DNA from: a virus
Virus record (IMG/VR): IMGVR_UViG_3300047550_007048
Strand: one strand, 5' to 3'
DNA: 31,333 nt
The notes beneath the pieces were generated by a model that had not been told where the DNA came from, did no database searches, and saw nothing but the letters and a program-made list of their open reading frames with translations. Position 1 is the stretch's first letter. Each line of letters begins with the position of its first letter. The position numbers and the translations under genes were made by a program. Positions 13,824-13,964 of this stretch are shown one piece after another.

Positions 13824-13964
13824 TGGCGGAACGGGAGGGATTCGAACCCTCGAGGGACGTTACCGCCCCTGCAGGTTTAATTTTGAACCCCGGAGAGTTG
13901 AACTCCTACCAAGCCTTGCTTGGGTCCCGCAAACCTGTGCCTTCAGCCGCTCGGCCACCGTTCC
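13824..13964 (-). tRNA. tRNA-Ser(GCT)-type class II gene interrupted by a 49-nt intervening sequence inside the anticodon (between nt 35 and 36); CCA encoded
   Basis: Acceptor GGAACGG/CCGTTCC with discriminator G. Ser-type D-arm GCCGAGCGGCTGAAGGC. Anticodon stem CAGGT...ACCTG separated by 56 nt (TTGC | 49 nt | TAA). 20-nt variable arm. T-arm GAGGG-TTCGAAT-CCCTC. Confidence 0.55.

Follow-up and report, generated by a model that had tools for sequence, protein, structure and literature searches.

To our knowledge, no tRNA splicing is known in bacteria or their viruses outside the self-splicing group I introns. Group I introns depend on a catalytic core (P3-P9) that takes up some 200 nt or more, form a U.G pair at the 5' splice site and end in G (PMC3984707; PMC13011429). 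Introns described as enigmatic are also carried by tRNAs of the Lak megaphages, where they were reported without explanation (Devoto et al. 2019, Nat Microbiol, PMC6784885). A literature search found no follow-up to the 2019 report.

The window, which is the whole 31,333-nt stretch of viral DNA analysed here, has a GC content of 55% and contains a tRNA array of bacterial type, with a class II tRNA-Tyr and encoded CCA. One gene of the array, on the minus strand, is interrupted within its anticodon. It is composed of two exons and an insert:

13824-13964, minus strand: split tRNA-Ser(GCU) gene, class II (Rfam tRNA model, ARAGORN in intron mode)
13929..13964, minus strand: 5' exon, with the acceptor 5' strand, D arm, anticodon stem 5' strand and loop nt 32-35 (UUGC) (Rfam 41.8 bits, ARAGORN)
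13880..13928, minus strand: 49-nt insert, GGGACCCAAGCAAGGCUUGGUAGGAGUUCAACUCUCCGGGGUUCAAAAU (ARAGORN; 40/49 columns conserved in four lineages)
13824..13879, minus strand: 3' exon, with loop nt 36-38 (UAA), anticodon stem 3' strand, 20-nt variable arm, T arm, acceptor 3' strand, G73 and CCA

Read from 13964 to 13824 on the minus strand, the gene is GGAACGG-TG-GCC-GAGCGGCTGAA-GGC-A-CAGGT-(56 nt)-ACCTG-CAGGGGCGGTAACGTCCCTC-GAGGG-TTCGAAT-CCCTC-CCGTTCC-G-CCA, where CAGGGGCGGTAACGTCCCTC is the 20-nt variable arm. The initial annotation had proposed a tRNA-Ser(GCU) split between anticodon nt 35 and 36 by a structured 49-nt insert, and Rfam and ARAGORN in intron mode agree on this. A local search of 13827-13964 (minus strand) with RF00005 scores 41.8 bits against a gathering score of 29 (E=1e-7). 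The alignment covers model positions 1-71 and all four arms, and confines the insertion to the anticodon loop. Together with the sequence itself, it bears out the intact acceptor, D arm, 20-nt variable arm, T arm and G73-CCA annotated earlier, as well as the anticodon-stem halves CAGGT and ACCTG lying 56 nt apart. When introns are allowed, ARAGORN reports a tRNA-Ser(gct) of 92 nt with a 49-nt intron and the junctions tttgc/.../taaac; in its default mode, without introns, the gene at 13824-13964 is not called. A second ARAGORN intron call in the window (Pro, 164 nt, 25448-25686) gave a poor model and was discarded.

The gene has the hallmarks of a class II tRNA-Ser: a long variable arm, a 3-bp D stem with a long D loop, G73 and, once the exons are joined, a Ser anticodon. 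Across the junction the joined exons read ...CAGGUUUGC followed directly by UAAACCUG..., giving the loop UUGCUAA. The partition TTGC/49 nt/TAA, earlier singled out as the sole class-II-compatible one, is identical to that of ARAGORN and stands as the only one; independent confirmation comes from relatives with other insert ends (AU versus AC) and from uninterrupted Ser(GCU) genes, which have the loop TTGCTAA. The joined tRNA would decode AGC, the commonest Ser codon of the phage. AGY codons make up 49% of its Ser codons, and the split gene is the only AGY-reading tRNA in the array.

The insert is predicted to fold independently into a miniature tRNA 'top half', built from the following elements:

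13928..13928, minus strand: N1, a lone unpaired G between the 5' junction and the closing helix
13922..13927, minus strand: 5' strand of the closing helix P1, GGACCC, pairing with 13885-13890
13907..13921, minus strand: linker AAGCAAGGCUUGGUA, with a small hairpin and a D-loop-like GGUA (MFE fold)
13892..13906, minus strand: T-arm-like hairpin, GGAG-UUCAACU-CUCC
13891..13891, minus strand: spacer G between the T-arm-like hairpin and the P1 3' strand
13885..13890, minus strand: 3' strand of P1, GGGUUC
13880..13884, minus strand: single-stranded 5-nt tail, AAAAU, ending at the 3' junction

In the MFE fold of the pre-tRNA, the cloverleaf is kept despite the insert and the anticodon stem can be extended to 8 bp. 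This 8-bp stem had been overlooked by the initial annotation, as had the 6-bp helix GGACCC/GGGUUC that closes the insert. The two hairpins that it did list, CCAAG-CAAGG-CTTGG and GGAG-TTCAACT-CTCC, are both present. The second was taken to be T-arm-like, in keeping with a T-loop consensus found in 11/11 inserts of the family described below. Its loop fits U-N-C-R-A-N-Y, the loop-closing G:C pair is invariant in all members, and the stem covaries between classes. The hairpin is 14/15 identical to the T arm of the window tRNA-Gly (17693-17707) and 15/15 identical to a T arm in L010/L050.

Comparison with relatives supports both helices. P1 covaries at pair 4 (C:G, U.G or U:A) and pair 2 (G.U or G:C), and its pairs are canonical or G.U in 44 of 44 cases (eight sequences). 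The same holds for 35 of 35 T-stem pairs, and double-sided changes occur at seven pairs of the two helices. Covariation was also looked for in the linker of the aligned inserts, and none was seen; the linker varies between tRNA classes in both length (8-24 nt) and sequence. N1 is G, A or C but exactly one base in 11/11 members, and the tail is 5 nt with an AA start in all 11 (AAAAU, AAGAC, AACAG, AAGAU, AACAA, AAUAC, AAUCU and AAGCG). P1 and the T stem together amount to 10, 10, 10 and 9 bp, or 11-12 stacked layers if flanking mismatches are counted. A strict 12-bp minihelix (7-bp acceptor plus 5-bp T stem) was rejected as a description, since it is only approximated by 11-12 layers and fails for the Met/Ile2 insert. 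The spacer is 0-1 nt across the family and 3 nt in the Met/Ile2 insert, which also has a T stem of only 3 bp; because of this member, the tRNA-like 'ruler' is imperfectly kept.

The split Ser gene is found in related metagenomic phages (L009, L010-15 and L021-23, and in part in L020) at a length of 141 nt, or 138 nt if the CCA is not encoded. L001 and L002 represent the window's own genome and are uninformative as relatives. Four complete variants, and a fifth copy that is truncated, all retain the insert with its length unchanged. In four lineages, 40 of its 49 columns (82%) are invariant while the adjacent non-coding flanks are unalignable, and the neighbouring proteins of insert-bearing lineages are only 53-82% identical. 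The acceptor stem of the exons shows compensatory changes at pairs 4, 5 and 6 among lineages. Judged by this conservation, the 49 nt is a genuine, functionally constrained intervening sequence.

Searches elsewhere were less productive. Megablast and blastn against GenBank phages returned only generic tRNA-Ser exon matches, and sequence and pattern scans of IMG/VR and genome collections for relatives of the insert gave nothing real. A generalised insert pattern had 25 matches, all due to chance. No related loci were found in IMG/VR by means of two flanking proteins, and radical-SAM homologues reached only distant T4-like contexts.

Inserts of the same design, 43-56 nt in length, also interrupt Thr, Asn, Leu and Met/Ile2 tRNA genes of the relatives. 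With Ser, this amounts to 11 distinct sequences in five tRNA identities, and we regard them as a previously undescribed family. The bacteriophages that carry it form a clade, are uncultured and probably have huge genomes of about 380-485 kb. All lie inside the anticodon, at 34/35 or 35/36. They share one unpaired base, a closing helix of 4-6 bp, a linker that varies, a hairpin resembling a T arm, and a 5-nt tail that opens with AA. Cuts placed 1 base before and 5 bases after the closing helix restore a 7-nt loop in 11/11 genes, which shows that the junctions are set by the insert's own structure and not by tRNA position. The bases at the junctions vary among the 11 members: the 5' exon ends in C, U or A and the insert in U, C, G or A. 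Applied to a gene that ARAGORN calls 'Pro', the boundary rule gives Leu(UAA), in agreement with its Leu-like body. All the other interrupted tRNA genes also pass the Rfam tRNA gathering score.

A descriptor of the design found 11 matches against 0.43 expected, 9 of the 11 in tRNA anticodon loops. The family covariance model scores 53.3 bits on the Ser insert, a value inflated by construction because this insert is a training member, and its weak extra matches land on genuine tRNA T-arm and acceptor regions. A model built from Ser inserts only gives 17.4 bits (E 0.023) for the Asn insert of L049 and 13.3 bits (E 0.43) for Thr, and does not detect the L009 Asn, Leu and Met inserts. This model is marginal across classes, and the common ancestry of all classes is therefore without statistical demonstration. 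Two further ARAGORN calls, Asn i27 (L050) and Pro i3 (L054), were rejected as interrupted genes. The complete huge-phage genome LR756500 (24% GC) contains two ARAGORN 'introns' without the family features and is too distant to be informative.

Empty sites are present both in relatives and in the window:

14628..14702, minus strand: uninterrupted tRNA-Asn(GUU), an empty site; the syntenic gene is interrupted in L009 and L049
12335..12416, minus strand: uninterrupted tRNA-Thr(UGU), an empty site; the L010 orthologue has a 44-nt insert

For Ser the situation is reversed, with the insert present in the window and absent from the syntenic gene of L049 (loop TTGCTAA). The acceptor and D arm of the window's 5' exon are identical to those of this L049 gene, an uninterrupted copy of the kind that the initial annotation had suggested seeking in related phages. 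Loops identical to the joined UUGCUAA occur in uninterrupted Ser(GCU) genes of L049, L018 and L006. The uninterrupted Thr(UGU) of L054 is exactly the joined sequence of the interrupted L010 gene, and an uninterrupted Leu paralogue is 96.5% identical to the exons of the interrupted Leu gene. The inserts are thus distributed as mobile introns are, patchily among close relatives and with precise empty sites equal to the joined exons (Ser, Asn and Thr). A tiny mobile insertion, one of three origins initially offered, fits best given this patchiness between sister lineages and the recurrence of one design in five tRNA identities. Genes for GIY-YIG/NUMOD3, DUF559 and HNH endonucleases are scattered in the tRNA arrays, none of them consistently beside an interrupted gene. 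At the DNA level the element would behave as mobile, possibly spreading by gene conversion through the free-standing homing endonucleases of the array.

On balance, we favor the view that the insert is a mobile structured mini-intron, probably excised by protein or RNP enzymes guided by its tRNA-like shape; for the removal itself we argue from sequence patterns. The pre-tRNA would keep its cloverleaf, be cut 1 base 5' and 5 bases 3' of P1, and have its halves rejoined into tRNA-Ser(GCU) with the loop UUGCUAA. RNase P may make the 5' cut, between C35 of the exon and G1 of the insert. It is proposed because this junction falls on the +1 position of the mini-tRNA, and the 5' exon would be left with a 3'-OH. 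The next cut, also hydrolytic, would follow the 4-nt '73-76' overhang and produce a 5'-phosphate. Sealing of the anticodon loop could then fall to a T4 Rnl1-type ligase that joins 3'-OH and 5'-P RNA ends or, after a different cut chemistry, to RtcB. The model for this scheme is mascRNA, whose ends are cut by RNase P and RNase Z. RNase Z cuts after position 73, not 76, and the 3' cut has no obvious enzyme because the known 3'-end endonucleases cut after 73.

Neither the 31-kb window nor some 150 kb of array DNA from relatives yielded an RNA ligase, RtcB, a splicing endonuclease or a T4-type kinase/phosphatase. A Pfam run on 28 window ORFs gave no ligase and no splicing endonuclease, and Pfam detected no EndA/Sen-type endonuclease in the window and related loci. 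A conserved neighbour of 193 aa was considered as a splicing enzyme and ruled out, because its fold is that of a 2OG-Fe(II) oxygenase and it carries an HxD...H triad.

More speculatively, and with considerable doubt, the inserts may represent a third kind of tRNA splicing in bacteria-infecting huge phages. The mini-tRNA intron would enlist the universal enzymes of tRNA end maturation, RNase P at its +1 position and a 3'-end nuclease behind its 4-nt overhang, to have itself excised from the anticodon, and an RNA ligase would reseal the loop. As a mobile unit it would move from one tRNA gene to another, and it might hold phage tRNAs in an inert or nuclease-proof state as long as the appropriate enzymes are missing.

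An unlikely alternative is that the insert is never removed. The gene would then yield a non-decoding RNA, or RNase P and other nucleases would free a small tRNA-like RNA plus tRNA halves, and these products would have a role of their own, such as decoy or inhibitor for host anticodon nucleases, regulator, or seryl carrier unconnected with translation. In favor of this, conservation of the insert equals that of the exons, its fold resembles a free-standing tRNA-like module, and no splicing enzymes were found in the DNA examined. In addition, SerRS does not read the anticodon, so that unspliced Ser RNA could still be charged. However, the exons at 11/11 inserts join to a perfect 7-nt loop with an anticodon that fits the tRNA body, and sister lineages have the same genes uninterrupted. 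Also, no other tRNA of the array reads the Ser codon that the phage uses most. A decoy would need neither covarying acceptor stems nor a restorable anticodon in five tRNA identities.

It is quite unlikely that the insert, with or without the tRNA body, acts as a new and very small ribozyme that cleaves or splices itself, leaving any ligation to the RNA or to an RtcB-type enzyme of the host. At 49 nt, with no group I core and no Intron_gpI match at the gathering score or at E<=10, it is too small for a group I intron, as the initial annotation had stated. The group I junction (5' exon U, intron-terminal G) is not seen either, as the ends vary in the 11 members. Rfam models of ribozymes (hammerhead, twister, pistol, hatchet and HDV-like) and of group I/II introns have no match at E<=10 to the region or to isolated inserts. 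A ribozyme would be in keeping with conservation beyond the needs of the helices, as seen in the invariant T-loop and in the AA that opens the tail. The lack of protein candidates nearby and boundaries set by the insert structure, as in autocatalytic introns, would also suit it. Against this, the junction nucleotides are unconserved, the linker is free to vary (8-24 nt), and the roughly 12 conserved unpaired positions belong mostly to a generic T-loop. We know of no self-splicing RNA near 43-56 nt; all are far larger.

There is very little likelihood that the gene is a decaying pseudogene, in which a chance insertion or recombination scar, such as a fragment of another tRNA, interrupts it without function. 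The resemblance of the T-arm-like hairpin to T arms of the array would be expected from the shuffling of tRNA fragments in a dense array, and ARAGORN misses the gene in default mode. The inactivating scar considered by the initial annotation is nevertheless contradicted by the insert's conservation at one length, with 82% invariant columns beside unalignable flanks, by the compensatory changes in the insert helices and the exon acceptor stem, and by the recurrence of the design in other tRNAs. Related genomes, in which decay might have been seen, instead keep the insert with 40 of 49 columns invariant.

An archaeal/eukaryal intron, cut by an EndA/Sen endonuclease within a bulge-helix-bulge (BHB) motif and ligated by RtcB, is extremely improbable, despite the structure-defined, non-canonical positions typical of archaeal BHB introns and a conserved exon-intron pairing (UUUG:CAAR) that can be drawn in Ser genes. 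In a BHB, two 3-nt bulges, which take the cuts, flank a 4-bp helix; strict and relaxed BHB enumeration on five pre-tRNAs yields none with a 7-nt loop, contrary to the BHB-like intron suggested initially. The only conserved relaxed motif has no outer helix, would give an 8-nt loop and is missing from the Thr gene. The two cut sites lie opposite one another in a single internal loop, with no 4-bp helix to offset them, and the array is bacterial in type, with no EndA-like gene in the DNA examined.

If tRNA-processing enzymes do remove these mini-introns, as we favor, they would define a new splicing pathway and a new mobile-element lifestyle inside essential genes. Standard bacterial-mode tRNA finders miss the interrupted genes, and the tRNA repertoires of huge phages are therefore under-counted. 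The gene missed here is the reader of the phage's commonest Ser codon.

The inserts can be compared with five known systems. Like them, group I introns occupy the anticodon loop of bacterial-type tRNAs and have a sporadic distribution of the mobile-element kind; in phage genomes, group I introns are associated with homing endonuclease genes (PMC3984707; Patescibacteria, PMC13011429). They differ in that the present inserts are 43-56 nt long and coreless and have variable junction bases. Archaeal BHB introns are likewise small, take their cut sites from local RNA structure and can occupy non-canonical positions. Their exons are rejoined by a protein ligase, which for the present inserts is only proposed. 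The inserts form no BHB; what can be recognised in them is a tRNA-like structure confined to the insert, and the context is bacterial in type.

Of the Rfam families, only mascRNA (RF01684) aligns with the isolated Ser insert, at a non-significant 12.4 bits (E 1.9); its scores here are 12.4-14.1 bits against a threshold of 42.5. The mascRNA/MEN-beta tRNA-like element combines an acceptor-like helix, a small hairpin and a T arm inside a larger RNA, and aligns element by element with the Ser insert. The likeness is topological only and far below threshold; mascRNA is eukaryotic and lies outside any tRNA, and its flanks are not religated. In T4 infection, the anticodon loop is cut by PrrC and resealed via Pnkp and Rnl1. 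A phage RNA ligase thus reseals a cut anticodon loop, so that such chemistry exists in phage-infected bacteria, and the T4 tRNA region also contains a free-standing homing endonuclease, Seg. T4 repair differs in mending a single host-inflicted nick and removing no insert, and the DNA examined here has no Rnl1 or Pnkp homologue.

The Lak introns are the closest relatives in kind. Both groups occupy anticodon loops of tRNAs in very large uncultured phages, are far below group I size, lack an Rfam match, are conserved where present and are patchy among relatives. In each group, a tRNA-like element made up of an acceptor-like helix and T arm lies against the 3' junction (for Lak, Table S6, PMC6784885). 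That of the Lak introns is fuller, near-complete, and Rfam calls a tRNA in one of them. The Lak introns are 79-114 nt long, with an extra 5' hairpin and an A/U-rich spacer, whereas the present inserts, at 43-56 nt, consist of the minihelix only. The Lak introns end 1-3 nt past the acceptor-like helix and have their reported sites at about 36/37-37/38; the present inserts start 1 base before the helix, end 5 after it and have theirs at 34/35-35/36. Lak genomes have 26% GC and gut Prevotella hosts, in contrast to the 55% GC of the window, and no sequence similarity between the two groups of inserts was detected. To the Lak introns, the only precedent, the present family adds compactness, a richer set of 11 sequences, empty-site alleles and a testable boundary rule, turning an isolated anecdote into a defined RNA class open to mechanistic tests.

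Read on the minus strand from 13964 to 13824, the tRNA-Ser(GCU) gene is a complete class II tRNA whose anticodon is split by a 49-nt insert. Its parts, listed below, agree with the initial annotation, which had described the arms and 3' end as intact and the anticodon-stem halves as 56 nt apart.

Parts of the tRNA-Ser(GCU) gene
Within 13824-13964 (-): acceptor, GGAACGG/CCGUUCC
Within 13824-13964 (-): D arm, Ser-type
Within 13824-13964 (-): anticodon-stem halves, CAGGU and ACCUG, 56 nt between them
Within 13824-13964 (-): variable arm, 20 nt
Within 13824-13964 (-): T arm, GAGGG-UUCGAAU-CCCUC
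Within 13824-13964 (-): 3' end, G73 and encoded CCA

The Rfam tRNA model (gathering score, 29 bits) matches 13827-13964(-) at 41.8 bits, with a large insertion that falls in the anticodon loop. ARAGORN does not call the gene in default bacterial mode; with introns allowed, it reports a 92-nt tRNA-Ser(gct) with a 49-nt intron and the junctions uuugc/.../uaaac. Both results support the split. The predicted fold retains the cloverleaf and lengthens the anticodon stem. A 6-bp helix (P1), GGACCC/GGGUUC, closes the insert and carries a small hairpin and a T-arm-like hairpin, GGAG-UUCAACU-CUCC, so that both annotated hairpins recur in the fold. A T arm in a relative, CGGAG-UUCAACU-CUCCG, contains 15 nt identical to the latter hairpin.

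Sequence searches found no close relative of the locus among cultured phages or IMG/VR contigs; related metagenomic phage loci (L-numbers) were found through the proteins flanking the tRNA-Ser gene. Several lineages carry an interrupted tRNA-Ser at the syntenic position, with an insert of 49 nt every time.

Interrupted tRNA-Ser genes in related loci
L009: neighbouring protein 82% identical; full interrupted gene
L020: neighbouring protein 58% identical; contig begins within the insert
L010-L015: neighbouring protein 53% identical; full interrupted gene
L021-L023: interrupted gene, found by an exon-anchored pattern scan

The last two bases of the insert are AU or AC depending on lineage, yet UUGC/.../UAA alone gives a serine anticodon in all lineages compared, which fixes the boundaries. 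The uninterrupted orthologue that the annotation had proposed to look for is present in L049, on a 453-kb contig where the phosphatase beside the Ser gene is 75% identical to that of the window. This syntenic tRNA-Ser(GCU) has the loop UUGCUAA and the same acceptor and D arms as the window gene, and two Ser(GCU) genes that are further removed and likewise uninterrupted, those of L018 and L006, have this loop too. The differing insert ends and the uninterrupted loops thus uphold TTGC/49 nt/TAA, between positions 35 and 36, as the sole workable partition.

Intron-aware scans of the related arrays recovered further inserts in other tRNAs.

Further interrupted tRNA genes
Thr(UGU), L010: insert of 44 nt
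Asn(GUU), L049 and L009: insert of 43 nt
Leu(CAA), class II, L054: insert of 56 nt
Leu(CAA), class II, L057: insert of 51 nt
Leu-type, class I, L057: insert of 50 nt
Met/Ile2(CAU), L057: insert of 52 nt

In the six loci run against the Rfam tRNA model, a set that leaves out L057, the interrupted Ser, Thr, Asn and L054 Leu genes and two genes with long inserts score above threshold. The inserts share one plan. After the 5' exon and one unpaired base comes P1 (4-6 bp), then a linker that varies from 8 to 24 nt, a T-arm-like hairpin and a spacer, which is 0-1 nt long except for one case of 3 nt; the 3' strand of P1 and a 5-nt tail starting with AA lead into the 3' exon. The hairpin has a stem of 3-6 bp, an invariant loop-closing G:C pair and a 7-nt loop, U-N-C-R-A-N-Y. 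Across eight tabulated inserts, all P1 pairs (44/44) and T-stem pairs (35/35) are canonical or G.U, and two-sided changes occur at seven pair positions. A descriptor of the plan has 11 matches in 197 kb where shuffles predict 0.43, and nine of the 11 lie in tRNA anticodon loops; a family covariance model finds no free-standing copy in 714 kb. With a Ser-only model, E is about 0.02 for the L049 Asn insert and about 0.4 for the Thr insert, and the L009 Asn, Leu and Met inserts go undetected. Common descent of all insert classes therefore rests on shared architecture, not sequence statistics.

A second, longer insert type occurs in relatives (93 nt, L049 12174-12343; 85 nt, L050 8308-8470). It is devoid of a T loop and consists of 5' hairpins and a 3' module, in which a 4-5-bp helix surrounds a CCUAAAG-loop hairpin and a tail, AAG or AAAAG, comes next. 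The tRNA with the 93-nt insert has a class I body and is called 'Tyr' by ARAGORN, its identity being uncertain.

Cutting mechanically 1 base 5' and 5 bases 3' of P1 produces a 7-nt loop and an anticodon suited to the body in all 11 genes. Nine then have the insert at 35/36 and two at 34/35; the Thr junction is ambiguous by one G. For a gene called Pro by ARAGORN, the rule predicts Leu(UAA); its exons are nearest to the 77-nt Leu-type array tRNAs (80% similar), not to Pro tRNAs. The cut sites given by the rule thus track the structure of the insert, and no fixed tRNA coordinate. Empty sites are found in L054, whose uninterrupted Thr(UGU) equals the joined L010 exons, identical around the junction, and whose interrupted Leu(CAA) has exons that match an uninterrupted paralogue in the same locus at 96.5% identity.

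Three explanations had been offered for the insert. A tiny mobile insertion fares best, as presence is patchy across alleles with exact empty sites.

Distribution of interrupted alleles
Ser(GCU): interrupted in the window, L009, L010, L020 and L021; uninterrupted in L049
Asn(GUU): interrupted in L009 and L049; uninterrupted in the window (14628-14702)
Thr(UGU): interrupted in L010; uninterrupted in the window (12335-12416) and L054

Interrupted and intron-less Ser alleles have identical 5' and 3' ends and differ in the anticodon stem, variable arm and T stem, a pattern that would be expected of conversion tracts accompanying gain or loss. Free-standing endonuclease genes (GIY-YIG/NUMOD3, DUF559, HNH) are dotted through the arrays, including three between tRNA genes of the window.

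Endonuclease genes between tRNA genes
8154-8987 (+): SegE-like GIY-YIG gene
21907-22542 (-): DUF559/Vsr-like gene
22831-23694 (-): GIY-YIG gene with NUMOD3

Such arrays resemble the T4 tRNA region with segB and fit a DNA-level mobile element; in the window and related arrays no endonuclease is consistently linked to an interrupted gene. The arrays of relatives hold further HNH_3 and T7 endonuclease I-like genes.

When the region is aligned for four lineages, 40 of the 49 positions of the insert never vary, which is about as conserved as the exons; the intergenic and coding DNA beside the tRNA is essentially unalignable, so that tRNA and insert form an island. P1 of the Ser insert covaries (pair 4 is C:G, U.G or U:A; pair 2, G.U or G:C), and the exon acceptor stem has compensatory changes at pairs 4, 5 and 6. 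A neutral scar would not behave in this way, and retention in several lineages likewise argues against an inactivating scar or decayed pseudogene. The archaeal-BHB-like intron fails on exhaustive enumeration, which yields no bulge-helix-bulge restoring a 7-nt loop; the sole conserved relaxed motif has no outer helix, leaves an 8-nt loop and is missing from Thr. A group I intron is dismissed, as it was initially, because 49 nt is far too small, no Rfam intron matches and the junction bases are unconserved, and known small ribozymes give no match at E<=10.

We favour, with some reserve, the reading that the insert is a true intron, removed to yield a working tRNA-Ser(GCU). As modelled, it has four features of the acceptor/T-arm half of a tRNA. 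Its T loop matches the consensus, and its linker contains a D-loop-like GGUA. P1 and the T stem compensate each other in length, adding up to 10 bp in Ser, Thr and Asn and to 9 bp in Leu; flanking mismatches bring the stack to 11-12 layers, against 12 in a real tRNA. Numbered as a tRNA, the insert would have its first base at +1, opposite the first tail A at 72; the second tail A would be discriminator 73, and the insert stops three bases on, at the mature tRNA end. The Met/Ile2 insert, with a 3-bp T stem and 3-nt spacer, is off this ruler. The isolated insert aligns at all with only one Rfam family, at a non-significant score: mascRNA, which is tRNA-like and is cut free by RNase P and RNase Z.

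These features suggest a scheme in which RNase P would cut the 5' side, leaving C35 with a 3'-OH, and a second hydrolytic nuclease would cut past the 4-nt overhang, leaving U36 with a 5'-phosphate. The halves would be joined by a 3'-OH/5'-P RNA ligase of the type with which T4 reseals anticodon loops. We know of no enzyme that cuts after position '76', and no ligase, RtcB, EndA or T4-type kinase-phosphatase gene was found in the window or related array segments. The RNase P-plus-ligase details are offered as a doubtful part of the proposal.

The window array is bacterial in type, with encoded CCA and a long variable arm in tRNA-Tyr; its tRNA genes number at least 42 and all lie on the minus strand. 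In 14 window ORFs, serine is most often encoded by AGC (139/309; AGY, 49%), and tRNA-Ser(GCU) is the only array tRNA that could read it. Several array members are unusual.

Other tRNA features of the window
20228-20304, 20422-20498, 20674-20750 (-): three 'tRNA-Leu' (CAG, GAG, UAG), 77 nt, 5-nt variable loop
22704-22788, 22796-22881 (-): two over-long tRNA-Gly with an extra variable arm, 85-86 nt
23955-24038 (-): over-long tRNA-Lys(CUU), 84 nt
12335-12416 (-): over-long tRNA-Thr(UGU), 82 nt, 11-nt variable loop
26936-27008, 19370-19441, 10729-10798, 18232-18306 (-): four further tRNA genes, above the Rfam tRNA threshold, uncalled by ARAGORN
25448-25686 (-): ARAGORN intron-mode tRNA-Pro, 164-nt intron, rejected for mismatched D and anticodon stems

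The 77-nt genes are class I bodies with Leu anticodons, unusual for bacterial-type tRNA-Leu, and their like is present in all related arrays. The first tRNA-Gly scores above threshold for Rfam tRNA-Sec (53.7 bits), yet its anticodon is UCC. The Pro call is probably a false one on a tRNA 3' fragment beside the Pro cluster. Amber-suppressor-type tRNA(CUA) genes, none of them seen in the window, occur in relatives (L050 12055-12127, L054 20055-20129, L057 14580-14655 and LR756500 c110652-110720), hinting at TAG reassignment in some clade members. Unannotated tRNA-like 3' ends (T arm, acceptor strand and ACCA) at L010 ~16537-16675 and L050 ~13076-13118 and ~16211-16245 may belong to a phage tmRNA-like gene; a two-piece cyanobacterial tmRNA model matches L010 16537-16613 weakly, at 20 bits, below threshold.

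Other genes are interleaved with the array. All on the minus strand, they are two dual-specificity-phosphatase-like genes (13976-14527 and 21129-21629), a SIR2 gene (11392-12204), a radical SAM/SPASM gene (16222-17439) and a gene for an RNase T/ExoX-like exonuclease (29272-30084). In relatives, ADP-ribosylglycohydrolase and NADAR genes join them in corresponding positions, and the whole is an NAD/ADP-ribose-flavoured set beside the tRNAs.

Homologues of the phosphatase adjacent to the Ser gene lie on contigs of 384-485 kb. The window also encodes an 834-aa protein (1-2505, -) with a major-vault-protein shoulder and repeat domains, matched at 38% identity by only three GenBank phage records, all from uncultured huge phages: LR756501 and LR756503 (735,411 bp each) and LR756500 (462,018 bp). 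The window therefore probably derives from a huge phage of a clade related to, yet distinct from, theirs. Its GC content is 55%, versus 24% in LR756500, which contains no member of the insert family.

Devoto et al. 2019 (PMC6784885) described 'enigmatic' introns in the tRNAs of Lak megaphages, stating that introns were until then unreported in phage tRNAs; of one intron they remarked that it 'itself may encode a tRNA'. Their Table S6 gives lengths of 79-114 nt, and each intron there carries a 5' hairpin as well as a more complete tRNA-like element by the 3' junction. Introns go unmentioned in the main survey of huge phages, and we found no mechanistic follow-up in the literature. The Lak introns are a known, still unexplained kind. 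The present family takes up their theme, while its size, layout, position and phage clade set it apart as a variant.
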